NCBI GenBank assembly: GCA_002390675.1
Contig: DGPZ01000102.1
Coordinates: 53,356-117,355 of the forward strand
DNA from: Deltaproteobacteria bacterium UBA4427
GTDB taxonomy: Bacteria; Myxococcota_A; UBA9160; UBA4427
Length of the DNA: 64,000 nucleotides
Direction of reading: 5' to 3'
Position numbers and translations under genes: made by a program. Positions 7,571-30,872 of the stretch are shown in pieces (position 1 is the first letter of the stretch; each line of letters begins with the position of its first letter). The notes below the pieces were generated by a model that was given only the letters and a program-made list of their open reading frames with translations, had not been told where the DNA came from and ran no database searches.

Positions 7571-7704
7571 ATCAAAAAAGCGGGCCTATGATCGCCGAAC
7601 CTGAAGAATTGAGCCACGCGTTGACTCTGTGAGTTGATTCCACCACGGTCGTTAGGCAGCCTCTAGCCTGAGCTCTCTCTTATCGGCTCATAAGAGGCTC
7701 TATC

Positions 7705-7720
7705 TGTGAATTGGTTCACA
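7705..7720. promoter_or_regulatory. CRP-type palindrome TGTGA-N6-TCACA
   Basis: Exact sequence TGTGAattggtTCACA, in the 536-bp lower-GC intergenic region about 135 bp upstream of the murA start codon. Confidence 0.3.
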
Positions 7721-8106
7721 CTTGGGCGCATAAATTGGTCCAAAGTCACGCCATCCCAGAGCTTTCCGAATCACAACGCTGGCGAGAAGTCGCCGATGAT
7801 CCTCACTCGGCCTCACTCATCCTGCCAGCCGCGCTCACCGTCACCGGCTGCAGTGATGGAAGCTCCATAAGCAGCTCTCATGGCCGTAGCCTTGGGAATG
7901 CTAGGTCAAGAGTCCGTTACTGCGAATGAGCTGGGGAGTGCCTATCGGCGCTACGAAAATGCAAAGTTCCTCTCGCAACTCTTGCTCGATCGCGAACCGA
8001 ATCTCCCCGGACATAAAGACTTTCGTCGAGAGACTAGACAAGCTCTACGAAAGAGCCGTCGGCGATGCGATCACTCGAATGGAGTCCGCGTCGTAGCCCG
8101 GTCAGG

Positions 8107-8619: not shown

Positions 8620-8845
8620 GGATCCAAAACCTCATTTTCACGATTGGGGGGCTCACCGACTCTACCGCGCAGCGCATCCCACGACACCTGCGACTCCCGG
8701 TCGGCCCTTTGGTCTTGTCTATTTGGTCGGCGATTACTCATCCGACCCTCCGGGACGATCCGAGGGGACGGGTTAACATGACACGCACAGTCTCGCGCCG
8801 GGGGTGTGGCGCGTTTGGAATCACGGATGGGGGAGCCGAATCAAA

Positions 8846-14415: not shown

Positions 14416-17400
14416 CTAGTCCTTCACCGTCCAGATCGTTTCCTGGTTCGTCATGTAGAGCTTCCGCATCTCTTCGAGATTGAAGGGACGCGAGCCCAAT
14501 CGGCCGAGGACTGAGATCTGATGTCCCGTTTCGTCCACTGCGCGATCGCGTTCGAGAGGGCGCGAAACCGCGAGGGCTTCCGACTTCGTCTGGCGCATTG
14601 CGATCAGCTTCGGGTTAGGAACCGGGCTGAAGCCGTAGAACTTCGGGTTCAGCTCGGGCGAAGTCAGCTGCACGATCTTGAGGCCGTTCTTCCCATCCGC
14701 CACGTAGGCGAAGAGCGAAGCGTTCGTCGTCGCAATCGCGACATCGTGGGCATCGTTCAGCTGGCCCTCCGCTGTGAACTTCATGAACACCTTCGGACTT
14801 TCGGGCTGCTCCACATCCACGATCACGAGGCCTTCCGAACCCGACGCGACATAGGCGTAGGTCCGTGAGACAGAGACGCGACGCGCTCCGGCGAGGGGGA
14901 TCGTTGCCCCTTCGACCAGACGCGGGGCCTCGGGCTTCGTCACATCAACGACCTTCAAGCCGTCATCATCCGTCACGAAGAGATACCGGAACTGCAGCAT
15001 CGAGCCACGCGGATTATTCAGCGGGATCCTCGCCAGCATCTTCGGATTCAGCGGATCATCGAGATCGACGATCACGACGCCCTTGGCCGCTGACACGTAG
15101 AGCAGATGTCCTGCGAAATGCGCGTGGTTCGCGCCATCGAGAATGCCGTTCGGGTTCCATGTCACAGCGCGCTCAAAGAAGTTGTTGCGCGGTTCGAAAT
15201 CCGTGAGCGTCTCGTTATTCACGAGGATGAGTCCCTCTTCCGAATCCGTCACAGCCACGTAGCTGTAGATCGGATGCATCGCCTGCTCGAGGTTCACCTT
15301 CTGGATCAGATCGCTGCGGTTTAGCTCCGGGCGAAGCAGCTGCGTCGTCGGTAATGCAACACAGGTCGCGTTCTTGCTCTTGACCCGAACGTTCTGACCG
15401 AGCGGCGAGAAGGGTGCTGTAATGATGCGCTCCGAGAAGCCCTTCGTACCGATCGTCGAGACGTCAAAGGCCTGCATGCCCTTGCTACCTTCCGCGGCAT
15501 AAAGGTATTCACCGCGCAGTTGGATGCATTCGACGCGACCAGAATGATGCGTGTACTCGCCGTCGTAAAGTGCGTCACGAGGCTCCATCCAATCAGGCAG
15601 CCAGGTCAGTCGCTTCGACAGCGTCTCTCGCAGGCTCTTAATCCATCCAGCGTCCATGTCCTGATAGCCCGGCGTCACTTCAGTGAGCTCGAGATCACGA
15701 TCGACATGCTCTTGGTAGTAGTCGGGGTAGGCGTACTCGTGGAGGTAGCTACCTATGACCGCCTGGGGTTCATCCCATTCGGTCACCTGGATCGCGACGA
15801 CTTCTTCGTCGGTGCCGACCCAAGCATTGAAGCCCATGAAGTTCACGAAGTTAGTTCCCAGCAGAAGTAGCTGAGCCATGATCGCGTTGTTGTCGTTCGC
15901 TTCCGAGAGATGGCAATCCTCGCAACCCTTGGTCTCCGTCTTACGGACGGTGTGCGGGAAGTGTGGCGCGAAGGCCTGCGCGGAATAACCACTCGCCGAG
16001 ACCGGCTGCTGTTGGATGTAGATGCGGTTTCGATTGATGTCCTGGGAGGACAAGACGAGCGCCGAGCTGGAGCGGATCGGAGCGATGATCCCGTCCTTAA
16101 CCGTGCCGTGCTTGCCGAGCTGGAACATCTGATCCCGTGCGACCTGCGGGTTGTAGGTCGCAAAGTTTCGAGCAGTTTTACCCTCGTGCTTGTGGGTCTC
16201 GGTCTTCCAGTTAGCTTGGATCGTGAGATGGCAGCCGCCACACGACGTCACCCAAGAACTGTGACAAGAGAAGCAGGCAATCTCTTCATCGCCGTGGGCG
16301 CGGTTTTCCTTGCTGACGCCGGTGCCCCAACTCTGGTCGGTGCCCTTCGACATCATCTTCGCGCGGGCGGCCTTCTCGTTGTACTCCGGGTTGCCCGGCG
16401 TGACCGAGTCCTTCACCTGGCTCACCGCAAATTCGTTATGCGGGGGCAGACTCAGGCGCTGGTAAAGCTTGCCGCCGCGCCATTCGAAGCGTTTGCGGTT
16501 GTCTTGGTTGCGGAGGCGAGAGAGGTCGCGGCCTTCGACCGGCGAGGCCGGGCCGGAAGTCTTGAGCGTCGCGTATTTGTCTGCGGTGCCGTGGCAATCG
16601 CGGCAGCGGATATTCACTTCCGCGGCAACTTCGCCGTGCAGCTCTCCATTGCCATGTGAATCATCCGCAAAGTGACAGTCCGCGCACTGCATGCCGATCT
16701 CGGCATGGATATCGCGCATATGAACCGCGCGATCAAACTTCTCCTTGTCGGAGAGTCCGTCGGGAATCGCGTTGCCGCCAGCGTCAAGAAGCGTGCCGTC
16801 TCGCGAGCGCTTAAAGATGGCGCGGAAGTTCCAGCCATGACCATGATAGTCGGCGAACTTCGTGTCCTTAGTCTTGGGATTGATGTCCTTCCAGACTTCC
16901 GCCAAGAAGTTTACGTCCGCCCACTTACCCTTGTAGGAAGCTTCTTCCGGGTTTCGCTTCAGCACCTTAAGCTGCTCTTCGAAGTCCGGGTACTGCTGTT
17001 CCTCAGGCCACATGAGCGGCGCATCGGATTCGTAATCCCACATCGTGTAACCGAGATACGAGTTGAGGAACATGTTCGGCTGATGCATGTGGCAGTTCAT
17101 GCACTGCGAGGTCGGGATCGCGCGGGAGAAGGCATGCTTGATCGGATGCCCCCATTCCTTCTCGCCCGCCTCATTCGTGAGATTGGCAATCATCGGATCG
17201 TCCGTCGCGGTCTGCCCCTTATTGCCGTACTTCGAGTAGGAACCCGAGCTGTACCATTCACGATCGTTTGCATAAACGACGTGGCAACTCGCGCAGCCCG
17301 AGCTTCGGAAGTCGCCGGGCTGATCCTTCGTGCCCATGAACCACATGTTCGGATCGTTGAGGCGCGTCTTGTGGATATTAAGGACGGGGATCGATACACG

Positions 17401-18288
17401 GTTGCCAGTACCCGGCCCACGGAAGGATGCGCGCACATCGGGCTTGCCCGGTTCTTCTTCCGGATTCGGAATGCCCGTCTCGGGGAAGAAGCTGTTTACG
17501 TTTCGGCCACCGCGCTCGAAGATGCGGAAGACGTCTGCCGGTGGCACCGTTTCCCAAGCCGGAAGCGGAAGCGCCATCTGCATCACGCCCATATCCGACT
17601 GCGCGCGAGAGACCTTGAACTTGGCCTTGATCGCGGCGGGCAGGCCTTCGCGGGTATAGGCCTCGCCGAGGATGTACCGCTTAAAGGGCACGATGCCGTT
17701 GTTGTAGGAAGCGCCGCCGTAGAGCATGGCGCCGGTGGCCATAATCGAGCGCTTCGCCTTTTCGACGATCGTCGAGTGGCAAGCGCCGCAGGCTTCGTCG
17801 GCTACTCGATAGTCCGAAGGGTTGATGAAGCGGACGTACTCGGGGCTTTCCAAGTTCAGCAGTGCGTAGGTTCGCACTTCGTTGTTCTTCTTTTCCCACG
17901 TCTCGGGCATCGCGGGCTGAACATGCGCCTGCGCCTGCGCTGCAACAAATCCTTCTGATCCCGGTTCGTAGCTTCCCGAGGTCGCGGTCGCGTCGCCGCC
18001 ATGGCAATCGGTACAGCCGAGGACGACGGACCGCTGGGGATGCATCGTCGCTTCATCGGACTTCGTATGGCACGAGACACAGCCCGCGCTCTTCACGGCC
18101 GCTTCCGCCTCGGATTGATCGAGAGGCGCCGGAGGATAAATGGGATAGTCGATTTCGAGCGCGTGCTCGCCTTCCGAAGCGTTAGAGACGCCGCCTGTAA
18201 AGGTCACGGCGAAAACCGTGAGACCGATCACGAGGGTCGCAGTAAGGACCGCTGTTAGGAGCGATTGAGTACGGGATGCAGCTTTCAT
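14416..18288 (-). CDS. decahaem cytochrome c fused to a C-terminal LVIVD-repeat beta-propeller
   Basis: Signal/anchor LLTAVLTATLVIGLTVFAV. Ten CxxCH motifs: CVSCH, CTDCH, CGACH, CASCH, CMNCH, CADCH, CRDCH, CFSCH, CGGCH, CEDCH. The last ~375 aa carry repeats KGVVIVDLDDPLNPK, DGLKVVDVTKPEAPR, EGLVIVDVEQPESPK, NGLKIVQLTSPELNPK and EGLILVNN. Confidence 0.85.
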   Translation of the reverse strand: MKAASRTQSLLTAVLTATLVIGLTVFAVTFTGGVSNASEGEHALEIDYPIYPPAPLDQSEAEAAVKSAGCVSCHTKSDEATMHPQRSVVLGCTDCHGGDATATSGSYEPGSEGFVAAQAQAHVQPAMPETWEKKNNEVRTYALLNLESPEYVRFINPSDYRVADEACGACHSTIVEKAKRSIMATGAMLYGGASYNNGIVPFKRYILGEAYTREGLPAAIKAKFKVSRAQSDMGVMQMALPLPAWETVPPADVFRIFERGGRNVNSFFPETGIPNPEEEPGKPDVRASFRGPGTGNRVSIPVLNIHKTRLNDPNMWFMGTKDQPGDFRSSGCASCHVVYANDREWYSSGSYSKYGNKGQTATDDPMIANLTNEAGEKEWGHPIKHAFSRAIPTSQCMNCHMHQPNMFLNSYLGYTMWDYESDAPLMWPEEQQYPDFEEQLKVLKRNPEEASYKGKWADVNFLAEVWKDINPKTKDTKFADYHGHGWNFRAIFKRSRDGTLLDAGGNAIPDGLSDKEKFDRAVHMRDIHAEIGMQCADCHFADDSHGNGELHGEVAAEVNIRCRDCHGTADKYATLKTSGPASPVEGRDLSRLRNQDNRKRFEWRGGKLYQRLSLPPHNEFAVSQVKDSVTPGNPEYNEKAARAKMMSKGTDQSWGTGVSKENRAHGDEEIACFSCHSSWVTSCGGCHLTIQANWKTETHKHEGKTARNFATYNPQVARDQMFQLGKHGTVKDGIIAPIRSSSALVLSSQDINRNRIYIQQQPVSASGYSAQAFAPHFPHTVRKTETKGCEDCHLSEANDNNAIMAQLLLLGTNFVNFMGFNAWVGTDEEVVAIQVTEWDEPQAVIGSYLHEYAYPDYYQEHVDRDLELTEVTPGYQDMDAGWIKSLRETLSKRLTWLPDWMEPRDALYDGEYTHHSGRVECIQLRGEYLYAAEGSKGMQAFDVSTIGTKGFSERIITAPFSPLGQNVRVKSKNATCVALPTTQLLRPELNRSDLIQKVNLEQAMHPIYSYVAVTDSEEGLILVNNETLTDFEPRNNFFERAVTWNPNGILDGANHAHFAGHLLYVSAAKGVVIVDLDDPLNPKMLARIPLNNPRGSMLQFRYLFVTDDDGLKVVDVTKPEAPRLVEGATIPLAGARRVSVSRTYAYVASGSEGLVIVDVEQPESPKVFMKFTAEGQLNDAHDVAIATTNASLFAYVADGKNGLKIVQLTSPELNPKFYGFSPVPNPKLIAMRQTKSEALAVSRPLERDRAVDETGHQISVLGRLGSRPFNLEEMRKLYMTNQETIWTVKD

Positions 18289-18380: not shown

Positions 18381-20654
18381 CTAGAAAGTAAAAGTGACGT
18401 TTACGAGGGCCGAATACGGCGGCTCATCAGAGCGTTCATCAAAGAGTTCCTCGTAACCGCTGCCCGGGATCAACACCGAGCCGGAGGCGCGCAGCACGAC
18501 GTTATTCGTGAAGAACGGTCGATAGATCACGCCGGCGCTGATGTCCCAGCCGATTTCGCGACTGAGGCGATCCTGCTGACGTAGTGTCTCAAGCACCTGC
18601 ACTGAATCCCACTGCAACCAAGAAATATTGGTCAGGATACGGAGTTCAGGCAGCACATCGAAGTCCGCGCCCACGCCCGCCTGCCAAAGGCCGGGGTTCA
18701 CGAAGTTGCTCTGGCCTTCGCCCTTCGAACTGCGGAGTGAGGGCACGATGCTGTTCTTACCCGAGAGCGCGACGCTGCCACCGAACACAAAAGGAATCTG
18801 CTGACGCATCCAAAAGGAGGTCGTGCCGCCCGCGAAGTTCGGGTTGTCGAGGATTGTGTCGAAGCCCTGTGCCTTGTCGTCATAGGGGTCGTCATCGCCC
18901 ATCGAATACAAGAAGAAGGCCTTGTATCGCATCCAGTCGAGATCGTAAGACGCTTCGAATGCGGCGAAGAACGACTCTATATCCTGGCTGCGCTGGGCGA
19001 TTGGGTTGTAGTCGTCGTGACCGAATGCCCCGTAGAGCTGGAACGTTAGGTTCAAACGCTCGATATGACCGTCGCCACCCAAGCCTACGTAGTAGACCTC
19101 GTAATCGTGGCCACCAATCAGACCGACCGGGGACGGGATGACTAGGTTCTTGTTGTTGTCGAAGTCTTTTTCATCGCCTTCGCGGTTGATATTCGCCGCA
19201 AAGATCGCTTCCACGTTAAAGCCAAGGACCGGAAAATCCTGATAGTAGAAGTTGGCAATGATCGTGTGGTCATCGCGCCAGGACTCAAGATTATTGAGCC
19301 CGGAGTTCGTGTCTTTATTAAGGCGACCGAACCAGGCCAGGTTGTACTGCCCACGGTTATTGAAGAAGTTGCCGAAGAGGCGAACGCCCGGCTCGGAGCT
19401 CTCGAAGAGGAAGCCACGGAAGTCAGCGTTAAAGGGCTGAATGCCGACGCGCAGACTGTCGAAATCGAAGCGATCCGTGCGGTTCCAAAGATGCTTGTCG
19501 ATGAACGCTTCTTGAAGCGTGAAGTGATAGTCGAGACGATCATCGCCTTCGCGCGGGTCAAGCTTTACAGCGCCTAGCTGATTCACCCAAACCTTATTCA
19601 CGTTCAGCGCCGGCGTGATGCGAATCTCCCAGTCCGGCGGACGGAAGGTCGTGTCGCCCTGCACCAAAGAGATCGACGGCAACAGGGTCGTCTGGGTTTC
19701 CCAGGCGACGCCGTCACCAAAGAGATCTACTTCCGAGCCGCGGTCGCCCGCTGCGCCGGTCGGAATTGGAATCCGACGTGCTTCAAGGACATGATCGAAG
19801 ACGATATTGACGTTGATGAACCAGTCCTTCGTGCCGGGGATCGGACGGTCACCCTTCAAAGTGTTCTGGTTATAGGGGTCGTACCACTTTTCGTTGACAC
19901 CGAGATTCTCGATGATGCGCCAACGGTCAGGGACCGCGACAAACTCGTAATCTGGGAGATCGTTCTCGTAGGTCGGAACGTTTTGGCGCGTCGGTCGTTC
20001 ACCGGGCCGTCGCTGAGAGCGCGGCACTATCGGATTGGGCGCTGGCGCACCCGAAGACTCGCCATCACCTTCGTTGTCGCCCCCATCAGCCGGCCGAACT
20101 GGAGTCGGGATTCGCGGGGGCTGCGCGCGTCGCGGAGTCGGCGCCCAGGTGCCCTCGTCGATCGGCGGCGACGCCGTAGGTGACACGGGAACGGGAGCTG
20201 GCACGGGAACAATCACGCCGCCAGCAGAACCGTCAGATGCGTCATTGGTCGGCGCGGGCGTCGTAGGCACGGGCGGAGCAACCGGGACCGGGGCCTGTTC
20301 AGCGCCCGCATCGCCCTCACGACTTCCGCCGGGTCGCTGAAAGCTCGGTCGGCGGCGGCGACGTGCCCGTGCGCCGTCACTATCCGCTTGAGCGAGCAGT
20401 AATTCAGTGAAGCTCGGAACTCGAAGCTGATCTTCAATCTGCTCGAGAGTTTCCGACGTTTCGGCGGTCACTAAGAACGGAGAAGGTGCAACCGGAGCCG
20501 GCCGTGCGGCCCAGCTGGTATCGGCACCTAACAGAAGTAACCCCGACAGCAGAGCTACACTGTGTCTGCACGCTTGCGTCGCTAACCGCTTCCCTGCGAA
20601 ATCAGTTGCAGCCTCAGGGCCATTCGTGAGCGCGCGTTCAATAATCATGCTCAT
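18381..20654 (-). CDS. putative outer-membrane beta-barrel protein with a Pro-rich N-terminal extension
   Basis: Signal-like segment VALLSGLLLLGADTSWA. About 130 aa of Pro/Ala/Arg low complexity follow. The remainder is a ~520-aa region of alternating hydrophobic/aromatic strands ending ...SALVNVTFTF, a C-terminal Phe typical of BAM substrates. Its ATG overlaps the upstream stop codon (ATGA). Confidence 0.55.
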   Translation of the reverse strand: MSMIIERALTNGPEAATDFAGKRLATQACRHSVALLSGLLLLGADTSWAARPAPVAPSPFLVTAETSETLEQIEDQLRVPSFTELLLAQADSDGARARRRRRPSFQRPGGSREGDAGAEQAPVPVAPPVPTTPAPTNDASDGSAGGVIVPVPAPVPVSPTASPPIDEGTWAPTPRRAQPPRIPTPVRPADGGDNEGDGESSGAPAPNPIVPRSQRRPGERPTRQNVPTYENDLPDYEFVAVPDRWRIIENLGVNEKWYDPYNQNTLKGDRPIPGTKDWFINVNIVFDHVLEARRIPIPTGAAGDRGSEVDLFGDGVAWETQTTLLPSISLVQGDTTFRPPDWEIRITPALNVNKVWVNQLGAVKLDPREGDDRLDYHFTLQEAFIDKHLWNRTDRFDFDSLRVGIQPFNADFRGFLFESSEPGVRLFGNFFNNRGQYNLAWFGRLNKDTNSGLNNLESWRDDHTIIANFYYQDFPVLGFNVEAIFAANINREGDEKDFDNNKNLVIPSPVGLIGGHDYEVYYVGLGGDGHIERLNLTFQLYGAFGHDDYNPIAQRSQDIESFFAAFEASYDLDWMRYKAFFLYSMGDDDPYDDKAQGFDTILDNPNFAGGTTSFWMRQQIPFVFGGSVALSGKNSIVPSLRSSKGEGQSNFVNPGLWQAGVGADFDVLPELRILTNISWLQWDSVQVLETLRQQDRLSREIGWDISAGVIYRPFFTNNVVLRASGSVLIPGSGYEELFDERSDEPPYSALVNVTFTF

Positions 20655-23212
20655 CGTCCCCCACAGCCATTCTGTTCATTGCTGTTCAAGAAGGGGGCGG
20701 GCGGGCAAACGACGTACCGGAGGTTCACGTTCTCGACCGAAATGTTGTCTGCGCGAAGTCCAAAGGGCGCATTGCCAATCGGGTTCGCGATGCCACGAGC
20801 GGCTTGCGCTTTCCCGATTTCGTCCAGGGCAACAAAGGGGACGAAGTCATCCTGCTCCGCGCCATCACCCGAGACACCGTAGCCGCCAACTAAAGTGCTG
20901 TTGCCGGCGCTATCGCTTCGATAGATCGGAACCGCACCTTGGAAGATGTGGAAGCCGTTCTGGAGGCCGGTGATCAGGCCGGCATTGCCGTCCTGAATGC
21001 CCTGCATGCAGTCAAGTTGGGCACCCGCGTCGGGCGAGAGGATCAATGCGGTTCGTGCAGCATCGCAATACAGGTTTCGCTGAACCGCATTCGTAAAGAG
21101 CTCCGGTCGCGTCACCGCCGCAAGCGAACCCGTCGTATCGAAGAGCGCAGCAGCCAAGTCCGGCACCTCTTCGCAGAGCGCAACGGCAATCGCTGGAAGA
21201 ACAATCTCAGTCTGAATCCCGGTACTGAAGATGCTCCACTCTCCGTTATTAGTCGGCGCCGGCGGAACACTCGCGGTCGTCGCGTCGGGATTTCGGGAAA
21301 GCGGACCGTTGTTACCCGAAGCGACACCCGGCGGGAAATCGGGGTTTGCGATTCCGCCGAGTGAAATCGAAGACCAAGCAAATTCGCCGTCAAATATGGG
21401 ATCCGCTCCACTGAGCCCCAAGAACACCCGAGAGTCGGTGACGTACTGAGAAAAGGGCTTCGTATTTAGAACGCCGGCATTTCCGAGCGGGTCACGCGCA
21501 GCTTCCAACTGAGCCCGCGCATTCGCCTTCGACCAGAACGCCGCTTGCCGCGTCTTCGAGATCGTCACGTCGACACCGTCGAGCAACGCGTCCTGCGACC
21601 GCGCAAAGCCGAGTACGTTTCCGTCGAGGTCCACAACCGCGACATCAATTCGCGCCTGACCGCCTATGGGTCGGCGGGTCTGCGCGCGGGTGTTTTCGGC
21701 GAGCTTAAGGGCTTGGATCAGCAGTTCCTGAACGTCCGCAGCCGAGAGACCATCGGCCAATGCCGGTGCGGCGACAGCTACTGCGTTCGCCGGTGGGGCG
21801 GGATTCACACTCGGGCTGGCGGGGTAGCGCCGAGCTGTCGCTTGGTCGACGAGTTCTTCACCGTTCGCGGTCCCCGCAAAGCCATTCGTCGACTGAGGGA
21901 ACAAGCCAGTCAGTCCATTGAAGGTCGTCTCAATCACCCCTGATGTCGGGTCGAGAAAGAATACGCCGCCGCGGGGCGCGGTAAACGGGAAGAAGAACTG
22001 ATCGAAGACAAAGGTGCCAGTACCGCTGCCGAGCGTGATGAGTCCGTTCAGCCGGGCCGTGATCGCTCCGATATTGTCAGCGTCGTCCGTCGAAATTACA
22101 GGCGCACTCGCTCGCGAGCCTCGCAGCCCTGTGTCGTCGACCCAGCGAAGCGCTCGTCCAGCGACCGTTATGCGGTCCGCCCGTCGCTCAACATCTGCGT
22201 CGTAGCTCGTCGCTGCGTTTCGTCCCTTCGTGGCACCAAAAGCAATCCGCTCTTCGATATTCCGGTCGCTGTTTGTTGCGTCCTTGTCGAGACTGTAGAC
22301 GCCGTTGTATTCGATGCCGACGGCGCCGACGACGACCTTGCCTGTCAGGCCGGTCGGAGCTCCGCCCAGGTTCCGTGGCGCACTAAGCTCCGCGATATTG
22401 TCCTTATAGAGGGAGATGCCGCCGGGGTCGGCCGCGAAGCCAACCGGCAAGCGGCGTGGGCCGATCAAATCCGTCGCTAACGGCGCGACGTCCGTCGTGT
22501 CCGTGATCTGGTCGACGCCTTGGCGCGTATTGATGTCGCTGCACGCAAGCTGTGCGATCTGAACCGCGAAGAGAGGGCCGCCCGGGCGATCGGTTTCGCC
22601 AGGAAAGAAGTTCTGCTGGATCAGCGTGCTCGCAGTTCGCGAAGTGAAGGCGTTGCCCTGGGTCGAGAAGTAGTTGGACGTACCTGCCTTGCTGATCGCG
22701 GCGTAGCCGGCCGGAATAAAGACTCCGTCGAGAGCGGTCTGCAGAGAGGTCAGGCCTGCATTCGTCGCGATGGCTGTGAAGTTTGCGGAGCCGCCGTTGT
22801 TCTCCACAATAAAGGGCGTGTTTGCCGTTCGGTTAGGGCTCTCCACGGAGGTAATGAGCGAGTAGTTTGTCGTTGCCGCATCCGTGTCATAGACCGCGAG
22901 CACGTTGCTCAAGTGGTCCAGCACCACGATTGTGATATCCGGAATGCCGTTCGCTTCGGCTTCGAAAATCGCGTTCGCGATCACCTGCACGACGTCCTGA
23001 ACCGTTAAACGCGCTTCGACGCCTACAGTAGCCGCCGGATAGCCGGGCTCAGTACCACGCTGCTGGTAGTCACATTGGAATTGGCAGACTTGGGTCCGCG
23101 AAACTTCGCCGTCTTGGCAGGCGGGAAGCGAGAACGACACGACCACCGATGCCGCTAGTGCAATCACGGTTCGTAGCTGCCGTCGACCGACACTCATAAA
23201 ACGGGCGATCAT
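20651..23212 (-). CDS. lipoprotein with two GlcG/HbpS-like (DUF336, haem-binding-like) domains
   Basis: The signal has an RRQLR n-region and lipobox SFSLPAC. Domain 1 is LTVQDVVQVIANAIFEAEANGIPDITIVVLDHLSNVLAVYD. Domain 2 is LSAADVQELLIQALKLAENTRA...ARIDVAVVDLDGNVLGFARSQDALLDGVDVTISKTRQAAFW. ATG at 23212 has GGAGG 6 nt upstream; the TTG at 23215 is the alternative start. Confidence 0.65.
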   Translation of the reverse strand: MIARFMSVGRRQLRTVIALAASVVVSFSLPACQDGEVSRTQVCQFQCDYQQRGTEPGYPAATVGVEARLTVQDVVQVIANAIFEAEANGIPDITIVVLDHLSNVLAVYDTDAATTNYSLITSVESPNRTANTPFIVENNGGSANFTAIATNAGLTSLQTALDGVFIPAGYAAISKAGTSNYFSTQGNAFTSRTASTLIQQNFFPGETDRPGGPLFAVQIAQLACSDINTRQGVDQITDTTDVAPLATDLIGPRRLPVGFAADPGGISLYKDNIAELSAPRNLGGAPTGLTGKVVVGAVGIEYNGVYSLDKDATNSDRNIEERIAFGATKGRNAATSYDADVERRADRITVAGRALRWVDDTGLRGSRASAPVISTDDADNIGAITARLNGLITLGSGTGTFVFDQFFFPFTAPRGGVFFLDPTSGVIETTFNGLTGLFPQSTNGFAGTANGEELVDQATARRYPASPSVNPAPPANAVAVAAPALADGLSAADVQELLIQALKLAENTRAQTRRPIGGQARIDVAVVDLDGNVLGFARSQDALLDGVDVTISKTRQAAFWSKANARAQLEAARDPLGNAGVLNTKPFSQYVTDSRVFLGLSGADPIFDGEFAWSSISLGGIANPDFPPGVASGNNGPLSRNPDATTASVPPAPTNNGEWSIFSTGIQTEIVLPAIAVALCEEVPDLAAALFDTTGSLAAVTRPELFTNAVQRNLYCDAARTALILSPDAGAQLDCMQGIQDGNAGLITGLQNGFHIFQGAVPIYRSDSAGNSTLVGGYGVSGDGAEQDDFVPFVALDEIGKAQAARGIANPIGNAPFGLRADNISVENVNLRYVVCPPAPFLNSNEQNGCGGR

Positions 23213-23253
23213 CAAAAGCCTCCGGCTTCGACACGATCCTTCGCGATTTAGAT

Positions 23254-23519: not shown

Positions 23520-25481
23520 CTAATTTAGGCGAACGAAGAGGTCCGTATGGGGGTTCCGCGGCAAGTCGGCATCAGCGCGACCGATCCCCACATAACCATC
23601 GCGCGAGACGCCGAGATGATTCGCCGGCATCGCCGCGTGATCCGAATGCGCCTCATGAATCGACGGGGCGTCGCCCTCGGCCGTGGGCTCAGCATCAGCC
23701 GCAGGCTCGCCCGACCTTTCGGGCGGTGATGTCGCCGCGGCCGACCCAGACGTCACGCTCGGCCCCATCGGGCCGTTCCCGCGCACATGAAATGGATGAC
23801 ACATAGAGCAAGGCGATGGCACCGTTTCGCCGCCCCAAGCATCCGCGCCCGCGTGACACTCGCGACAAACCGTAATGTCCGGGATCAAGATATCCCCGGC
23901 CTCATTGCTGACCCGAGTTGTCGGCTCCCTTAGAATCAACTCATAAGGAATCGAGTCCTTCATGGACCATTCGGGTCGCGGAAGCGCGCTGTCCGGCTCG
24001 GGATCGAAGACCGCTGCACCCGGGTGGCATTTTACACAGGCGAAGGGGGCGTGGGATCCGTGACTGAACACCGAGCCCGGCACCCAGATATCTTGGACTT
24101 GGACCGGAGCCACGCCCATCCCTCCGTCACTCGCTCCTCCCGGATCGAGTTCGTGACAGAGGTCGCAGGTTCCAGGACGTTCGTAGAAGCGCCGTTCCGC
24201 ACGCTCGACTTTGCTCTCGACCCATCGCCGAGAGAGTTCAGCCTCTTCCGAACTGAGTCGCGCACCTGGGCGCCGCATCCGGAGCCTACGCGGGGCCTCG
24301 GCATCCTTCACTTCGCCACTCAGCACGCGTGTAGCGTAAAACCCTCGAATCTTCGCCCTGATGTCGGCCGGATCCCCGTGCGGGGTGAAGCCCGGAGGAG
24401 CCGTGGCGTCGAAGTCGAGCCGATGGCAGTCCTGACAATGCTCCTCGAACACGACGGGCTTCATGTAGAGGCCACCCGCATCCGGCTCATGGCACGCGCC
24501 GCACTGGAGATATTGCTTCGAATCGCCGCGGCCGGTGACTGCCTTTCCGACATGACGAAGGTGACTAAATTCGAGGCCGGAGATCTCGACGAGATCGTCT
24601 GTGACATCGACTGAGACCGCCTCGAGAAGAGGGTTTGTCACGAGTGCGAGCTGGAAGGGCGGGTGGTCTTCACCGAAATCGCTCGCGTCCCGGAGCGAAG
24701 TCTCGGCGAGCTTGCCGCCGAGATCAGAATGGCAGTCCGAGCAAAAGCCAGAGCCGAGATCCGCTAGGTCGACCTGCCGGCCGCGATGTTCTAGATGGCA
24801 GGTCCCACAGTCGGCATTATCGAGCTCAGCCATCCTCATTTCCAGCGGCGAGTGCCGGCCAATATCGTGATGGCAGGTCATACAGTCATCATTCTGCACG
24901 GCCTGGAAGAACCCCGAATGACATTTCTGACAATCGCTCTCGACGTAGGCATGACCGCGGCTCACATCGCCCGTATTCCAAGGCGACTGAGCTGGCGACC
25001 AAAAGAGCGGAACTAACAGGAATCCGATCAAGATCGTGCCGATCGCGATCCAAGCCAGAGGGCGACGTGCAAAAATGCCGGATTCAAGGCCTAGCGTCGT
25101 TCGCTCTTCCAGTGAAGCACGTTCACTTTGACCTCGATCCGTCTCCTCGTATTCGAGCGCAACATCAACCTCAGCACCCTCTTCGGGTTGCAGTACCCGA
25201 AGTTCCCAAGATCCGAGCTTCAAGACATCGCCCGGGCCGATCCGCTCACCACCCGTCACCAGGCCATTGACGTTGACCTCTTGCCCAGCAGCGGCCTCAA
25301 CGTACAAGCGACCATCCGCCATGCGGAATGTCGCCTGATGCAGCGAGATCGTCAGCCCCTTGAGCGAGAGGTCGTTATCCGGCCCCCGTCCAACAAAGAG
25401 GGACTCGACTTCGATGTCGCGGTCAAGGCGGACTTTCTTGCCCGTTGGCCGCAACCGAACTTCTGTTAGGCGAACTTTCAT
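23520..25481 (-). CDS. FHA domain - single TM - periplasmic decahaem cytochrome c fusion
   Basis: The N-terminus has FHA signatures: FVGRGPDNDLSL, TISLHQA, VNVNG. TM segment LAWIAIGTILIGFLLVPLFW. Ten CxxCH motifs: CQKCH, CMTCH, CGTCH, CSDCH, CGACH, CQDCH, CDLCH, CVKCH, CRECH, CSMCH. The ATG lies 1 nt after the upstream TAA. Confidence 0.85.
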   Translation of the reverse strand: MKVRLTEVRLRPTGKKVRLDRDIEVESLFVGRGPDNDLSLKGLTISLHQATFRMADGRLYVEAAAGQEVNVNGLVTGGERIGPGDVLKLGSWELRVLQPEEGAEVDVALEYEETDRGQSERASLEERTTLGLESGIFARRPLAWIAIGTILIGFLLVPLFWSPAQSPWNTGDVSRGHAYVESDCQKCHSGFFQAVQNDDCMTCHHDIGRHSPLEMRMAELDNADCGTCHLEHRGRQVDLADLGSGFCSDCHSDLGGKLAETSLRDASDFGEDHPPFQLALVTNPLLEAVSVDVTDDLVEISGLEFSHLRHVGKAVTGRGDSKQYLQCGACHEPDAGGLYMKPVVFEEHCQDCHRLDFDATAPPGFTPHGDPADIRAKIRGFYATRVLSGEVKDAEAPRRLRMRRPGARLSSEEAELSRRWVESKVERAERRFYERPGTCDLCHELDPGGASDGGMGVAPVQVQDIWVPGSVFSHGSHAPFACVKCHPGAAVFDPEPDSALPRPEWSMKDSIPYELILREPTTRVSNEAGDILIPDITVCRECHAGADAWGGETVPSPCSMCHPFHVRGNGPMGPSVTSGSAAATSPPERSGEPAADAEPTAEGDAPSIHEAHSDHAAMPANHLGVSRDGYVGIGRADADLPRNPHTDLFVRLN

Positions 25482-25482
25482 T

Positions 25483-26319
25483 TTAGTGATACCAAAAAAC
25501 GACGAAAATGTGAACGATCAGCGCCGCGCAGGTCGCGAACGCAAAAGGAACATGAACGATCAGCCAGAGGTCAAGAAGCCCCTTAAATCGAACGTCGCGC
25601 CGAATCTGCTTCAGAAGTAGTTCCTTGCGCGCAATCAACTCAATCAGCTTCCGCTCTTGCTCTTTGGCCTCGTCGTCCAGATCAACCTCCGACGTTCGCA
25701 AGCTGCGAAGCGCGCGCGACGTCCCGCAATCAGCATCTTTCCCGGAGAGCTGGGACCGAAACGTGCCACCGATTCGCGTGTCATCTATAGAGGTCACGAC
25801 GGCATGCGCGTAGTAGTCGGGCAAGCCATCTGCGGCCATCCGACACTCAGAATCGATCTCGGCGATTCTCTCAAGCATGGCATCGAGTGTGATGTTATTC
25901 CGGTTCCGCGTCATGGAGGTCGGAACGAGTGCGTAGAACGCCACGCCAAGAATCCCGCTGATGCAAACAACGCACATCAGGGCATAAGCGAGCGTGTGAA
26001 CATTCCAGCCAAATTCGAAGGCCGAATGCAAAGGCACGAGGAAGAGCAGCCCCGTCCCTAAATAGACATGCGCCGAGACCCAGCCCTTAAGCGACGCGCC
26101 CGTCGCGGAGTAGCTCCGCTTGCGAATTCCTAGCCACATCAGCCAGAAGATCGTCGCCGCCGCGATCGTCCCAAGGCCGTAGCCAGTCCAAGAACTACCA
26201 CTCCGGCCACCCGGCGGATCGTCCACGACATAAACCACGATCGACAGAAATAGCGTACTAAGCGCCACCTTGAGATAGCGATAGTTCTGGTATTCAAGGA
26301 ATGTACGCGGCCCGATCAC
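25483..26319 (-). CDS. integral membrane protein, putative di-haem b-type cytochrome
   Basis: Five predicted TM helices. Two helices each carry His-x13-His: SAHVYLGTGLLFLVPLHS and IVHVPFAFATCAALIVHI. A ~110-aa charged loop lies between TM4 and TM5. The longest ORF starts at 26406 but would overlap the upstream gene by 83 nt. The GTG at 26319 lies 4 nt after that gene's stop codon. Confidence 0.6.
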   Translation of the reverse strand: MIGPRTFLEYQNYRYLKVALSTLFLSIVVYVVDDPPGGRSGSSWTGYGLGTIAAATIFWLMWLGIRKRSYSATGASLKGWVSAHVYLGTGLLFLVPLHSAFEFGWNVHTLAYALMCVVCISGILGVAFYALVPTSMTRNRNNITLDAMLERIAEIDSECRMAADGLPDYYAHAVVTSIDDTRIGGTFRSQLSGKDADCGTSRALRSLRTSEVDLDDEAKEQERKLIELIARKELLLKQIRRDVRFKGLLDLWLIVHVPFAFATCAALIVHIFVVFWYH

Positions 26320-26323: not shown

Positions 26324-29300
26324 CTAGCCCTGCCTTTCGTAAATTTCGTCGACGTATTCGCCGGGATCAATTCGCACAATCGCGCCGGTCGGACACGACG
26401 CAACACAAGCCGCGCGTGGCGCGCCGCTCTTTTTGGCGGGCAACTCCCGGCAGAGATCGCACTTCACGGCCTTCTTCACAGTCGCCGCTCCGCCTTCCGC
26501 CGGCTTCGCATCGCTCGCGGCCTTCTTCTTCGCACGCGAGGGGAAGAGCAGTCGCATCAAGAGCCCTGGCCCGGGCTCGTCGTCGACCTTGGCCATCTTG
26601 ATCACGTCGTAAGGACAGTAGGCCTCGCAGTTGCCGCACCCGATACACGTCTCGTCATTGATCCAGACTTCGCCGTTCGGATCGCGATTAAGCGCATCCG
26701 GTGGGCAGTCGGTCATGCACTTTGGATTTTCGCAGTGCTGACACGCGGTCGGGAGATGAAGCGCACTGCCCGCGCTCGTCATATACGTCGCGCCGGCTTC
26801 GCGATTCAAGCGAGAAACGCCGCCATGAGTCTCGCCGCAGGCTTTCTCACAATTGTCACAACGGACGCATAACGTCTCGTCGATCATCAGCAGATCCGTG
26901 GCTTCCTTACCGCCAGCCTTCTGCAGCCACATCATCGTGCCGCGACCATGCTGACGGCGCGCATCCGCAATGATGAATTCCTGCTCCTTCAGCTCAAGAT
27001 ATTCGCGAATCTCTCGCGAGCTTTCGACGTACTGAAGGATTATCTCGGTCGGGAAGAGCACCGTCTCGCAGTCGACGCCCGCTTTCGCGGTCGCCGTTCG
27101 AGTACGCCCGGGATGCAGCACTGCGAGTTCGCCGATCGTAGAGCCGGCGCGAACCGAGTCGATCTGTTCTTCAGAACCCTCGTGCTTTTTGTAGATCTCC
27201 GCGGTCCCGCGACGAATCAGATGTAGACCATCCGGCTCATCCCCCTCACCGAAGATCACTTCTCCAGCGCGATGCATCAAAGTTTCCGCGCGATCGGCGA
27301 GTCGATCGCGCGCAGCCGATTCAAGAGACGGGAAGAGTGTCGCGAGCGCGGTATTTACGTAGGCCGCGTCGATTACCTTCTTCACGTCTTCGACCGAACG
27401 CGTCAACTTGGTCATCGTGTTGCGCGGCGTCTCGATCACGATGCATTGCTGCGTCGTCGTCACCGTCTCGCCGCGGCGACGCCCCGAGATCAAACCATCC
27501 TCACCAAAGAACTGCCCCGCCAGACGCTTGGTTCGGCGCTCTGTGCGCAGGTCGTCAGGAATCGTCGGATCAGAGTTATCTAGATACGCGAGTTCGACTT
27601 CGCCTTCGATGATCGAGAAGAAGGTGTTGTCAAAGTCGGCGCGGCTATAGATGACCACCCCAGGCTTCTCTATGCGCACTTTCGACTCGAATAATAACTG
27701 CCGCAGCTGAACCATGGTGAGCGGCGCGAGCGTAGGCACCGCCTCCTGAATCCTCGCGAGATTTTCGCTGACGCTTCCGCCCACTTCTACGAATTTATTC
27801 GCGAGCACAGGCTCATCCGCGGGCTTCACGGATTCGCCGAGCACATGCTCTATGACCTCAAACCCCTGATTCATGCAGTTCTTGATCAGTGGGTATCCGA
27901 CCAGGGCACCCACCATATAAATGCCGGGAACATTCGATTCATACCGATCCGAAACGTCTGGAATCGCTTCCTTGTCCTTGCTCGGGAATGAGACACCTAG
28001 AGACTCAAGGAAGGAACGCGGCGGCGTAGCGCCCAGACGGCCTATGACGAGATCCGTATCGAGCCGTACTTCTTCGCCGGCCTTCGTCTTGAAGACAGCG
28101 GCATCGGATTCAAAGCGATCCGCGCTCGCGTGCGTGAGGTAAGCGATTTCGCCGGTTTTGATCTTCGCCTCGATGGCAGCCTTGTTCATTGGCTTTGCGC
28201 GATCGATCTCGTCGCGACGATTTACGATCGTAACTTCGTTGCCGTTTTCTGCGAGGGCGATCGCATTCTCGATGCCCGCATCGCCAACGCCAACGACAAT
28301 CACTCGCTTGTCTTCATACGCGCCGGGATCGTCGAGCTGATAGGTCACCCAGGGCTGGTCATCCCCGGGCACACCGAACTTCCGAAGATCGCCCTGCACA
28401 CCGATGGACAGAACGATATGCGTCGCGTCGACGGTCTTTGCGCCCCCCGGCCCACGCATCTCGATCTTGAACGCGCCCTTCTCGCCTTGGATCGAAAGCA
28501 CTTCCGTGGCCTCGACCAAATTCGTGCCCGCATTCGTCGCCGCTTCGCTCCACCAAGCAAGGACCTGTTCGCGAACAGCCTCTTCGAAGACCATCTTAAG
28601 GTCGCCCTGAAGCGGCAACTGCGGCGGCTCGGCCATAACGAGCTTGCCCTTCTGGTACTTCACAATCGTGTCGGCCAACACCGATCGCTCAAAGAGCGTG
28701 TGCTTCAGTCCACGCTCTGCTGCGCGCACGCCTGCGGCGATCCCTGCCGGGCCCGCACCGATGATCGCGATATTGATGCTAGACGGATCCGGCGGCGGCT
28801 CGTCGACAGACACAGGCCGCAAATGATGTGCGGTCGTCGGCTCAGCAACGCTCCCCTCGGCTGCGGCAGCCGGAGGCGAAGCGGGAGCGGCCGGGGATGC
28901 CAATTCAGAAGCCGGTGCCGGCTCGGCGGGCTCTGCAACCGGCGGGGCCGGTCCCGAATCTGCAATCGGAACGGCAGACGCTTCGACGGATCCTAGTTGG
29001 GTCGCGTCTACTTCGGGATCGGGGGTCGCCGAAGCCGCTTCGGCCGCGACTGCCTCAACCTCGAGCTTCAATCGAAGCACGACGCGATCTGCCAGCTGGA
29101 TCTCTTCGCCTCCGGCAAGCGGCGTGCGCTCCAAAATCTGGTTGCCATTCACCAGCGTGCGATTGACCTGACTCCTGTGGATCAGAACCAAGGTCTCGCC
29201 TTCCCAGACGACTTCCGCGTGCAGGCGCGAAATGCTCCGGTCGGCGAGTCGGATGCCGCAATTCAGACCGCGTCCGAGAGTGGTTGACCCAGCACCCACC

Positions 29301-29365
29301 TCGAAAACTTGCCCCGCTTGATCGGGAAGACCGCCCATCACAGTCAACGTGGCTCGGATCGACAA
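26324..29365 (-). CDS. FHA - FAD/NAD(P) pyridine-nucleotide-disulfide-type oxidoreductase - 2x cyclic-nucleotide-binding - four-cluster 4Fe-4S ferredoxin fusion protein
   Basis: FHA signatures: TLGRGLNCGIRL, SISRLHA, LVNG. A Pro/Ala linker follows. Dinucleotide fold IAIIGAGPAGIAAGVRAAERGL and a second VIVVGVGDAGIENA. cNMP signatures FFGEDGLISGRRRGETVTT and TIGELAVLHPGRTRTATAKA. Cys motifs CVRCDNCEKAC, CQHCENPKCMTDCP, CIGCGNCEAYCP and CDLC...CVASCP. The start is TTG, with GGAGG 11 nt upstream. Confidence 0.85.
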   Translation of the reverse strand: MSIRATLTVMGGLPDQAGQVFEVGAGSTTLGRGLNCGIRLADRSISRLHAEVVWEGETLVLIHRSQVNRTLVNGNQILERTPLAGGEEIQLADRVVLRLKLEVEAVAAEAASATPDPEVDATQLGSVEASAVPIADSGPAPPVAEPAEPAPASELASPAAPASPPAAAAEGSVAEPTTAHHLRPVSVDEPPPDPSSINIAIIGAGPAGIAAGVRAAERGLKHTLFERSVLADTIVKYQKGKLVMAEPPQLPLQGDLKMVFEEAVREQVLAWWSEAATNAGTNLVEATEVLSIQGEKGAFKIEMRGPGGAKTVDATHIVLSIGVQGDLRKFGVPGDDQPWVTYQLDDPGAYEDKRVIVVGVGDAGIENAIALAENGNEVTIVNRRDEIDRAKPMNKAAIEAKIKTGEIAYLTHASADRFESDAAVFKTKAGEEVRLDTDLVIGRLGATPPRSFLESLGVSFPSKDKEAIPDVSDRYESNVPGIYMVGALVGYPLIKNCMNQGFEVIEHVLGESVKPADEPVLANKFVEVGGSVSENLARIQEAVPTLAPLTMVQLRQLLFESKVRIEKPGVVIYSRADFDNTFFSIIEGEVELAYLDNSDPTIPDDLRTERRTKRLAGQFFGEDGLISGRRRGETVTTTQQCIVIETPRNTMTKLTRSVEDVKKVIDAAYVNTALATLFPSLESAARDRLADRAETLMHRAGEVIFGEGDEPDGLHLIRRGTAEIYKKHEGSEEQIDSVRAGSTIGELAVLHPGRTRTATAKAGVDCETVLFPTEIILQYVESSREIREYLELKEQEFIIADARRQHGRGTMMWLQKAGGKEATDLLMIDETLCVRCDNCEKACGETHGGVSRLNREAGATYMTSAGSALHLPTACQHCENPKCMTDCPPDALNRDPNGEVWINDETCIGCGNCEAYCPYDVIKMAKVDDEPGPGLLMRLLFPSRAKKKAASDAKPAEGGAATVKKAVKCDLCRELPAKKSGAPRAACVASCPTGAIVRIDPGEYVDEIYERQG

Positions 29366-29717: not shown

Positions 29718-30872
29718 ACTGGAGTTCCCCTGTCCGCGCACCTCAAGTTCCTCGACTCCAAATGCTCTCCCTCCGACGCGAAGGCTCAAGCTCATCTTGT
29801 CCTCGGGACGCGAGCGATCAGTGACGCCTTCGCCGCAATTGAATCGGAAATCGCAGAGGGCGCTTCAAGGGTCTGTACGTACGGTTGCCCAGCAATGGGC
29901 AAAACTAGTCTCGCGCGTGCGCTTCCCAAATTGCTCGGCGACAAAGCGCGCATTGCACTCGTTCCAGATCCAGCCCTATCCGGGGAATCCTCGCGAACGA
30001 CCCTCCCCCTCGTAACCGTGATCGACCCAGCTCAAAAGGCCGACGAAAATTCCCTCGATCACTTGGATGGGATTCTCAGTTACCGAAGCGATCTGCCACC
30101 CCCGTGGTCCAGAGCGTGCCCCTCGCACGACTCGGCATCAAAACTGAAAGCGACGCGCTTAACGAAGGTGATCAACTTCTCATCTGGCGGCTCGATCGAA
30201 TCTAAACACTCCAACTTAAATTCGCCCCGCTTCCGCGAGACTGCGCTCCGCCATACACCCACAAGTATCTCAAGCGCACGAGATGCTAAGCGCCGGAACT
30301 CTTCAGCGCCCATGCAGCTTTGGCCATTCACACGTATACGGGTGGCGTACCTAGTGAAAGCTCTGCGTCCTGCGAAAGCATGTTACTCGAGGCAGCCGCT
30401 CAAAAATTGTCCGAACTCGACGCGGGTTTTATGCGAGGCCTTTCCGAACTTGGGCCGAGATCCAGAGCTTCGGCGCTTCACCATTAATGCGGCCCCTGGC
30501 CGTCGCCCTGGCAGCATTATGTTAGTTGGCTTCGGCATCGTGCATTTCTTGTCCGACGACGCTTTGACTTCGAATTCAAAGGCGGAGCTGAGCCGAAGGA
30601 CCCATGCCCCACGACGCAACGGCAAAGCAGCAGCGTCCAGAACAACGTCAGCCGGCACCATCTCAATTCCTGACCTGGAACCGCAGCCCGGCGAGGGCAC
30701 TCCCCAGTTGGTGCTCTTTGAACCCGCCGGGGGTTTCCTTTCCGCAAATTCGCTTCCCGACTTGGAGTCGGCTGTGAGCGGTCTAGCATATTCTATTCTT
30801 CGTACGCCGCGCCTCGCATCTCTCACCTCGCATCCCGCGCACTTCCGCGCGAGCCAAGGAACTCAATCATGA
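29718..30872 (+). pseudogene. decayed ExeA/MshM (GspA)-like AAA ATPase gene (frameshifts, in-frame stops)
   Basis: Frame of 29895: ...RVCTYGCPAMGKTSLARAL (Walker A GxxxxGKT) then LVTVIDPAQ (Walker B-like, DEAQ->DPAQ). From about 30090 the homology continues in the -1 frame: PVVQSVPLARL..LIWRLDRI*TLQLKFAPLPRD..YTHKYLKRTRC*APELFSAHAALAIHTYTGGVP..LLEAAAQ. In-frame TAA codons lie at 30203 and 30287. There is no ATG/GTG/TTG upstream of the Walker A in the open frame from 29718. A TM-like segment GSIMLVGFGIVHFL follows back in the first frame. Confidence 0.45.

Follow-up and report, generated by a model that had tools for sequence, protein, structure and literature searches.

The window analysed here, the whole stretch of 64,000 nucleotides (nt) from contig DGPZ01000102.1 of Deltaproteobacteria bacterium UBA4427, carries on its minus strand a row of six genes, g1 to g6, that may encode a route for electrons from cytoplasmic NAD(P)H to the cell surface. 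The gene at the head of the row, g1, runs for 1013 codons without interruption and joins a regulatory FHA domain, a flavoprotein, two cyclic-nucleotide-binding (cNMP) domains, and a ferredoxin in one polypeptide.

26324-29365, minus strand: g1, 1013-residue fusion protein (stop codon included) of FHA domain, linker, flavoprotein, two cNMP domains, and a ferredoxin of the type with four [4Fe-4S] clusters.
29072-29338, minus strand: FHA domain of g1, approximately residues 10-98 (PF00498).
28781-29071, minus strand: Ala/Pro-rich disordered linker of g1, approximately residues 99-195 (from sequence and a low predicted local distance difference test score, pLDDT).
27806-28780, minus strand: FAD/NAD(P)H flavoprotein of g1 with two Rossmann domains, thioredoxin reductase (TrxR) fold, without CxxC, approximately residues 196-520 (Pyr_redox_2/3).
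26966-27748, minus strand: tandem cNMP domains of g1, approximately residues 540-800 (PF00027, two stretches).
26327-26890, minus strand: four-cluster ferredoxin domain of g1, HycB/NrfC/DmsB/ArrB type, approximately residues 826-1013 (Fer4_11 and related models).

A Shine-Dalgarno-like GGAGGGG is located 9 nt upstream of the TTG at 29365, and therefore we take this TTG as the start of g1. The alternative start, an ATG at 29338, gives a protein of 1004 residues, the form used by a public gene call. The Pfam modules of g1 were judged against curated cut-offs and all lie above them, in agreement with the original prediction, made from the letters alone, that one frame of 1013 residues combines five modules.

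The fusion is genuine. At least 91% of the 31-mers of g1 are present in 20 marine metagenome runs (approximately ten studies, 2014-2025), and the whole gene is covered by single contigs of 42 and 59 kb from two unrelated runs, which date from 2014 and 2023. The two contigs differ from g1 by 3-4 substitutions, with zero indels and no joint. A protein search with g1 returns 1962 homologues at E ≤ 0.001, the best 120 clusters of which were inspected. The full architecture of FHA, Pyr_redox, cNMP, and Fer4 is found in approximately 61 of the 120, down to 45% identity; the other clusters have the same flavoprotein-cNMP-cNMP-ferredoxin core of approximately 810 residues without the FHA domain. The fused core is present in every non-truncated homologue among these best 120 of 1962. 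The contigs that span the gene and the fused relatives thus answer the question of a chimera, a frameshift, or a normally split gene, which had been raised together with the prediction, and the architecture proves widespread, with the FHA domain in part of the family only. In a scan of one genome per species, relatives of g1 are present in at least 591 GTDB species.

The flavoprotein module is matched by Pyr_redox_2/3 over residues 198-501 (E 1e-31 to 1e-33) and contains the motifs GAGPAG and VGDAG. In Foldseek comparisons its best match is YpdA/Bdr (PDB 7a76), with a template-modelling score (TM) of 0.87 and a root-mean-square deviation of 2.7 Å, followed by many TrxRs (E 1e-18 to 1e-21) and the TrxR-like ferredoxin-NADP+ reductases (FNRs) 3ab1, 3lzw, 6gas, and 6gar (E about 1e-18). 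The model fits YpdA and the flavin-reducing (FR) conformation of TrxR at TM 0.84-0.87. The module therefore shares its two-Rossmann FAD/NAD(P)H fold, without CxxC, with YpdA/Bdr and with TrxR-like FNRs such as YumC, Chlorobaculum FNR, and B. cereus FNR1/2. Unlike the FNRs, g1 does not end in a C-terminal flavin-capping subdomain; the cNMP domains occupy its place, and the chain runs on through both of them into the four-cluster ferredoxin.

Two disulfide-reductase identities were tried and ruled out. A low-molecular-weight thioredoxin reductase (TrxB) is ruled out because the redox-active CxxC is absent throughout residues 196-520, where the sole Cys lies within KNCMNQG, and the TrxB model TIGR01292 gives 76 bits against a cut-off of 343. 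A YpdA/Bdr bacillithiol-disulfide reductase is ruled out because the active-site Cys (GGGPCG in YpdA) is missing from g1, which reads GAGPAG with G194, G196, P197, and G199 invariant, and because YpdA TIGR04018, the best NCBIfam match (E 6.9e-46), reaches 156.5 bits where 339.9 are required. As neither the redox-active CxxC nor the YpdA cysteine is present, the module is best described, from its sequence, as an electron-transfer flavoprotein of the TrxR fold. The thioredoxin-reductase-like flavoenzyme of the original prediction thus holds for the fold, with the refinement that no redox-active disulfide is present. The second Rossmann motif is followed by the stretch NRRDExDRAK. In the corresponding HRRDxFRAEK of E. 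coli TrxR, Arg residues contact the 2'-phosphate of NADPH, and by this resemblance NADPH is probably the likelier electron donor.

The FHA domain (PF00498 at residues 28-91, with 41.7 bits where the cut-off is 20.7; pLDDT 88-95 in AlphaFold2) matches the M. tuberculosis FHA protein 3po8. All three parts of the expected GR...SxxH...NG motif are found, as GRG...SRLH...NGN, and these phospho-Thr-binding residues are conserved among the FHA-bearing relatives, so that phosphopeptide binding is predicted. The linker that follows was expected to be Pro/Ala-rich and approximately 100 residues long; it has approximately 96 residues with approximately 45% Ala+Pro by hand count and is predicted to be disordered, with a pLDDT of approximately 30 for residues 96-171 of the 1004-residue form, compared with 85-95 for the folded domains. 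Its length differs among relatives, whose whole proteins range from 956 to 1149 residues.

PF00027 matches two stretches of the tandem cNMP region (86 bits against 27.5, E 1.6e-24), which aligns across both cyclic-nucleotide-binding domains of the regulatory subunits of protein kinase A (PKA-R). FGEDGLISGRRRGETV and IGELAVLHPGRTRTAT line up with the phosphate-binding cassettes of PKA-R. The pocket Gly-Glu and the phosphate-binding Arg are retained in both domains, in keeping with the two cNMP pockets read earlier, and ligand binding is predicted for each.

Fer4_11 and related Pfam models cover residues 826-1000. The Cys groups read CVRCDNCEKAC, CQHCENPKCMTDCP, CIGCGNCEAYCP, and CDLC-x14-CVASCP, i.e. 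the CxxCxxCxxxC, CxxCx4CxxxCP, CxxCxxCxxxCP, and CxxC...CxxxCP patterns as claimed, the fourth being CxxCx14CxxxCP. All 16 Cys are invariant in an alignment of 53 sequences down to 45% identity, which is what four [4Fe-4S] cubane clusters would need, and we infer that the domain holds them. PDB matches extend across the domain (HycB 7z0s_B, residues 826-1001; ArrB 6cz7_B, residues 826-998). The NCBIfam matches are NrfC, DmsB, HydN, and ArrB, at 40-65 bits against cut-offs of 200-380, so that no named equivalog (NrfC, DmsB, HybA, etc.) is reached. The DmsB/NrfC-like assignment made beforehand therefore stands for the four-cluster type, without membership of a named NCBIfam equivalog. The domain lacks both a Tat signal and any other signal sequence, and the modules to which it is fused are cytoplasmic; hence it is probably cytoplasmic too.

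Five further genes follow g1 on the same strand.

25483-26319, minus strand: g2, 278-residue membrane protein with five helices, putative di-haem cytochrome b (invariant His pairs).
23520-25481, minus strand: g3, N-terminal FHA domain, one transmembrane helix, and periplasmic decahaem cytochrome c (Pfam, CxxCH count).
20651-23215, minus strand: g4, 854-residue predicted lipoprotein with HbpS/GlcG-like domains (PF03928, two stretches).
18381-20654, minus strand: g5, 757-residue secreted protein, probable outer-membrane beta-barrel (from its termini).
14416-18288, minus strand: g6, 1290-residue decahaem cytochrome with a C-terminal LVIVD beta-propeller region (CxxCH, LVIVD).

The GTG start of g2 is 4 nt beyond the g1 stop and g3 follows g2 after 1 nt; g4 and g5 overlap by 4 nt, and the gaps between g3 and g4 and between g5 and g6 are approximately 300 and 92 nt. 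The gene 3' of g1 encodes a membrane protein that is not NrfD-like, as had been proposed. The predicted model of g2 (pLDDT 82) has five helices and a cytoplasmic insert of approximately 110 residues. Five His residues, H84, H98, H108, H256, and H270, are invariant in alignments of six and of 45 sequences, the latter down to 51% identity. H84 and H98 are on helix 3 and H256 and H270 on helix 5, 14 residues apart in each case. By the positive-inside rule, helices 3 and 5 would both run from cytoplasm to periplasm. Therefore, H84 and H256 would ligate a haem on the cytoplasmic side, and H98 and H270 a haem on the periplasmic side. Such placing of two haems b is the classic one, known from cytochrome b, NarI, FdnI, and the ferric-reductase domain. 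Sub-threshold matches to Ni_hydr_CYTB (PF01292, cytochrome b561) occur in all 45 family members (best 2e-8), and weak matches to Ferric_reduct and DUF4405 in 18 and 14 of them. From these patterns, g2 looks like a divergent, putative di-haem-b protein. Its family counts 295 representative clusters at E ≤ 1e-30, rising to 1164 at E ≤ 1e-10, and none of them is annotated. One library protein of 1110 residues, P0379, holds the flavoprotein-cNMP-ferredoxin core of g1 and g2 in one polypeptide, and would be a Rosetta-stone link between the two if no stop-codon error is involved.

In g3, ten CxxCH motifs follow a transmembrane helix near residue 139, and Pfam matches FHA, Cytochrome_C7, and c3. Most of the 62 g3 homologues listed carry the FHA domain. 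The g3 FHA (approximately residues 30-90) reads S-L-H in place of the canonical S-x-x-H. Duplication as the origin of the g1 and g3 FHA domains is rejected (27% identity, E 0.59); the two were probably acquired separately and may differ in ligand.

The N-terminus of g4 has a lipobox-like LPAC. In g5, a signal-like N-terminus, a C-terminus ending in ...VNVTFTF (the Phe end typical of outer-membrane proteins), and a weak porin NCBIfam match make it a probable candidate for an outer-membrane beta-barrel; it has no Pfam family or PDB match. All ten CxxCH motifs of g6 are invariant, as are others including HGHGWNFR and CMxCHMHQPN, and LVIVD is matched at E 5e-17. The mean column identity of g6 is 69% across phyla. 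In nine loci (L012, L021, L025, L031, L033, L041, L043, L067, and L080) g6 is 54-62% identical, compared with approximately 44% for g1 and approximately 30% for g3. Such conservation, far above that of its operon partners, suggests that g6 is the catalytic end of the system, an enzyme rather than a passive wire. It is weakly similar to ExtM, a cytochrome of the Geobacter selenite/tellurite operon. PDB sequence searches, including profiles for g2, g4, g5, and g6, gave nothing useful.

The six genes stay together over large distances. Their order on one strand is retained at 74%, 49-51%, and approximately 44% g1 identity, whether g1 carries an FHA domain or not, and the partner genes g2-g6 are conserved from Myxococcota metagenome-assembled genomes (MAGs) to Alpha-, Beta-, and Gammaproteobacteria. 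In a tblastn survey of the flanks of 86 g1 loci, in which most misses fall at contig ends, matches were found to g2 in 58, g3 in 65, g4 in 51, g5 in 50, and g6 in 52 of the 86, and at least one partner gene flanks g1 in 75. In loci labelled Burkholderiales or Betaproteobacteria, g3-g6 are upstream of g1 instead of downstream. The N-terminal FHA domain of g1 was detected in only five of the 86 loci and that of g3 in 20, by an insensitive test. To judge from these sequences, the former is an add-on in part of the g1 family and the FHA domain on g3 the more widespread input. FHA-bearing g1 is confined to Myxococcota- and Gemmatimonadota-labelled MAGs among the relatives listed (one FHA-bearing cluster includes a Gemmatimonadota member), and the closest named relatives of the window's g1 among the matches listed are Myxococcota MAGs. 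The gene set is also present in cultured bacteria, namely Alcanivorax sp. 1008, Oceanibacterium hippocampi CECT 7691, Zavarzinia sp. CC-PAN008, and Pseudomarimonas arenosa CAU 1598, and in Burkholderiales MAGs. Most carriers belong to taxa such as Alcanivorax, Lysobacterales, and Oceanibacterium, which we take to be heterotrophs.

Taken together, the genes point to a quinone-independent path from NAD(P)H through FAD, four [4Fe-4S] clusters, two haems b, and a multihaem chain to the cell surface, gated by the cNMP and FHA domains. We give this reading, which extends the earlier and supported reading of g1 to a whole system, a probability of about 0.5. NAD(P)H, probably NADPH, would reduce the FAD of the TrxR-fold module of g1. 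Because this flavoprotein has neither a disulfide nor an active-site cysteine, electrons would leave the flavin singly and enter the C-terminal chain of four [4Fe-4S] clusters. The ferredoxin would dock on the cytoplasmic face of g2, where two stacked haems b, held by the two His pairs, would take the electrons across the inner membrane. The membrane-anchored decahaem g3 would receive them and, with the lipoprotein g4, could pass them to the barrel g5 and to g6, the decahaem/propeller protein, at or close to the surface of the cell; an external or periplasmic acceptor would be reduced there. Outward flow is favoured because NAD(P)H is the most reducing component of the chain and an electron that moves outward follows the membrane potential. 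Tight gating would be expected of such a path, because it spends reducing power and membrane potential and bypasses the quinone pool. The cNMP pair, located between the flavin and the Fe-S wire, would turn electron transfer on or off in response to cAMP or cGMP, and the tethered FHA domains, on g1 in the window's clade and widely on g3, would couple the complex to Ser/Thr-kinase signalling. Contigs from seawater metatranscriptomes (low depth) cover parts of all six genes.

The proposed system resembles three kinds of known system. Like NarH-NarI and FdnH-FdnI, it places a four-cluster Fe-S subunit beside a membrane protein with two His pairs on two helices, and FdnI belongs to Ni_hydr_CYTB, the family weakly matched by g2. 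However, it has no molybdopterin catalytic subunit, its input being a flavoprotein fused to the ferredoxin, and the proposed flow from g1 to g2, cytoplasm to periplasm, is opposite to that of Nar and starts from the opposite face to that of Fdn. In addition, g2 lies below the family thresholds and, unlike NarI and FdnI, has five helices and a cytoplasmic insert. With the NADPH oxidases (NOX), FRE, CsNOX, and ferric-reductase-domain proteins of the MsrQ type it shares a logic that leads from NAD(P)H in the cytoplasm by way of FAD and two haems b to an acceptor outside. The haems b of NOX-type proteins are on transmembrane helices 3 and 5, with His pairs 13-14 residues apart, as proposed for g2, and NOX5 and DUOX are similarly gated by signals (Ca2+, phosphorylation). 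In contrast to NOX and FRE, the dehydrogenase of g1 has the TrxR fold and not the FNR fold, four Fe-S clusters are interposed, the acceptor would be a multihaem chain and not O2 or Fe(III) directly, and g1 is a polypeptide separate from the membrane part. Finally, as in MtrCAB and the Geobacter Pcc and Ext conduits, a periplasmic decahaem cytochrome, a large barrel candidate, and a second large decahaem cytochrome are encoded in one operon. Those conduits are fed by the quinol dehydrogenases CymA, ImcH, and CbcL, whereas the operon here encodes an NAD(P)H-flavin-FeS-haem b input, and the HbpS-like g4 and the LVIVD propeller of g6 have no counterpart in them. The proposed system would work like a hybrid of a NarH/NarI-type Fe-S/haem-b junction, NADPH oxidase logic, and a porin-cytochrome conduit, and the comparisons made here place it in none of these groups.

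Two gene clusters of recent preprints appear to contain the same inner-membrane module as g1-g2-g3, to which we liken them by description only. In the ptd operon ptdABCDEFG of marine bacteria, the module consists of the cNMP/4Fe-4S protein PtdE, the membrane protein PtdF, which resembles ferric reductases, and the membrane-anchored decahaem cytochrome PtdG, and its function is given as unknown (bioRxiv 10.1101/2023.11.21.568154); a penta-haem protein, a tetra-haem protein, and a separate FAD protein take the place of g4-g6. The Ferrigenium straubiae cluster, its function likewise given as unknown, combines a [4Fe-4S] protein with a membrane protein of five helices and an FHA-nonahaem cytochrome anchored in the membrane, and its authors state that FHA domains with multihaem cytochromes had not previously been reported (bioRxiv 10.64898/2026.01.22.701106). 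Neither paper describes an FHA domain at the N-terminus of the flavo-FeS subunit, mentions how the His residues of the membrane protein are arranged, or identifies an NAD(P)H module as the point of electron entry. A Tenderiales LVIVD protein and the clusters of He et al. 2017 were considered as relatives and rejected as unrelated. A full-text literature search turned up no g1 family member that has been studied by biochemistry or genetics. NCBIfam has no model that names g1, and the public names of its relatives are generic ("NAD(P)-binding domain-containing protein", "cyclic nucleotide-binding protein"). Databases therefore already list the family, and others have touched on it briefly; what is new here is the inferred mechanism and its regulation.

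Several observations weigh against the proposed path. The g2 of the window scores 25.8 bits against the Ni_hydr_CYTB cut-off of 30.1; its model has no Foldseek match at E < 0.1, and its PDB sequence and profile searches are empty. P0379 may reflect a stop-codon sequencing error or a lost stop codon, and a g2-type Met is still present at its g1-g2 junction. No cyclase, kinase, or phosphatase is consistently adjacent to the cluster, among the window's reading frames tested and upstream in loci L024 and L025. The metatranscriptome contigs, at their low depth, are weak evidence of expression and could include DNA. Many carriers come from taxa usually called aerobic heterotrophs, for which a respiratory outlet is presumably not an obvious need. 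At least three loci have g1 relatives without any of g2-g6 within 8-10 kb, namely L003 (labelled Candidatus Limnocylindrales), L018 (Proteobacteria MAG), and L062 (Betaproteobacteria MAG), and the g1 core protein may thus work alone. The open reading frame of L018 is listed at 904 residues, and its match to g1 stops approximately 250 nt before the stop codon; the surplus may be a C-terminal extension or an artefact of the listing. A reading frame of 280 residues downstream of the L018 orphan was considered as a g2 relative and rejected by profile comparison.

Of the other readings, one routes the electrons through the quinone pool, with g1 and g2 as an alternative NAD(P)H:quinone oxidoreductase and g3 as a quinol dehydrogenase like CymA or NapC. 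Four-cluster ferredoxins do normally pair with quinone-reactive partners (NarI, FdnI, NrfD, DmsC), and g3, with one helix and multiple haems, is laid out like the NapC/CymA-type proteins. However, the strict adjacency of g1, g2, and g3, with gaps of 1-4 nt, argues for one complex; no quinone-site motif was recognised in g2, and its invariant fifth His and insert of approximately 110 cytoplasmic residues are unlike known quinol-oxidising b subunits. We consider this route unlikely.

The orphan copies L003, L018, and L062 support a second reading, in which g1 acts on its own in soluble form as an NAD(P)H oxidoreductase or redox sensor under cNMP control, for example as a diaphorase or a reductase of the ferredoxin or flavodoxin type; it would merely be co-regulated with the cytochromes and would not dock on g2. 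Ferredoxins of the HycB/HydN type can indeed be soluble carriers. Against this, at least one partner stands beside g1 in 75 of the 86 loci, across several phyla and in two gene orders, the g2 family (the 295 clusters at E ≤ 1e-30) is peculiar to this gene setting, and P0379 is a possible g1-g2 fusion. A soluble g1 is in our view improbable.

The chain could also run in reverse, with an external or periplasmic donor such as Fe(II) feeding the multihaem chain, g2, the Fe-S clusters, and FAD to yield NAD(P)H or reduced quinone for autotrophic or mixotrophic growth, an idea we find very doubtful. The look-alike trio of the Fe(II) oxidiser F. straubiae is discussed as a possible inward route (bioRxiv 10.64898/2026.01.22.701106). 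Burkholderiales MAGs also carry the cluster. Such flow would be uphill in redox potential to NAD(P)+ and against the membrane potential, no coupling device is visible, and most carriers come from taxa regarded as heterotrophs. Moreover, the Ferrigenium genes are expressed in all conditions and are not Fe(II)-specific (bioRxiv 10.64898/2026.01.22.701106). Finally, an artefact behind the long frame of g1 (frameshift, read-through, or assembly chimera of separate genes) is excluded, as independent contigs cross the gene without indels, the core is fused in all non-truncated members of the best 120 homologues with invariant cofactor motifs, relatives occur in at least 591 GTDB species, and nothing in its favour was found among the contigs, homologues, and motifs checked.

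Returning to the outward path, we propose, tentatively and on balance with more doubt than confidence, that it is a quinone-independent wire from NADPH to the cell surface under second-messenger control, a counterpart of NADPH oxidase or ferric reductase to which Fe-S clusters and twenty c-haems have been added, with g6 as the catalytic end. If so, Fe(III), Mn oxides, humics, or O2 (to superoxide) could be reduced on command, by cAMP or cGMP and by Ser/Thr phosphorylation, and such a wire would be present in hundreds of species of the sea and soil, many of them from supposedly aerobic taxa. To our knowledge, the known bacterial routes for electrons out of the cell begin at the quinone pool. 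A route that starts from NAD(P)H, crosses the membrane by two haems b, and is switched by cNMP and phospho-Thr would differ in design, in that it would dump reducing power without conserving energy. It might bear on iron acquisition, extracellular superoxide, and redox balancing in common ocean and soil bacteria, and would assign a function to the two gene clusters marked as unknown in the preprints.

The surroundings of the cluster were searched for regulatory elements. A promoter and terminator scan between 14 and 30 kb of the window gave counts at or below the shuffled expectation, and Rfam has no match across the whole window, and so no riboswitch upstream. The 1090-residue protein encoded at 941-4213 (minus strand) has a C-terminal Ser/Thr protein kinase domain and is located approximately 22 kb from the FHA-bearing g1 and g3. 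It is a candidate writer of phospho-Thr ligands; its position is not conserved in other loci. In L005, two CHASE2-guanylate-cyclase genes (1-3566) lie a few kb upstream of the cluster, and in L006 a cytochrome c-FTR1 iron-permease fusion (5806-7833) lies directly upstream. Each was seen once; they are possible hints of a cNMP source and of a link to iron.

Upstream of g1, the divergent reading frame at 29895-30872 (plus strand) encodes 325 residues without a Pfam match. Its equivalent in L001 is an AAA_22 protein of 679 residues, and the frame in the window may have been cut short or wrongly delimited. A tungsten-type aldehyde:ferredoxin oxidoreductase homologue (40108-41835, plus strand) and a DUF3604 protein (61631-63415, minus strand) seem unrelated to the cluster. 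A few kb past its other end, at 8804-10249 (plus strand), a further multihaem cytochrome c is encoded, with weak Pfam matches to Cytochrome_C554, c7, and MtrC-like families.

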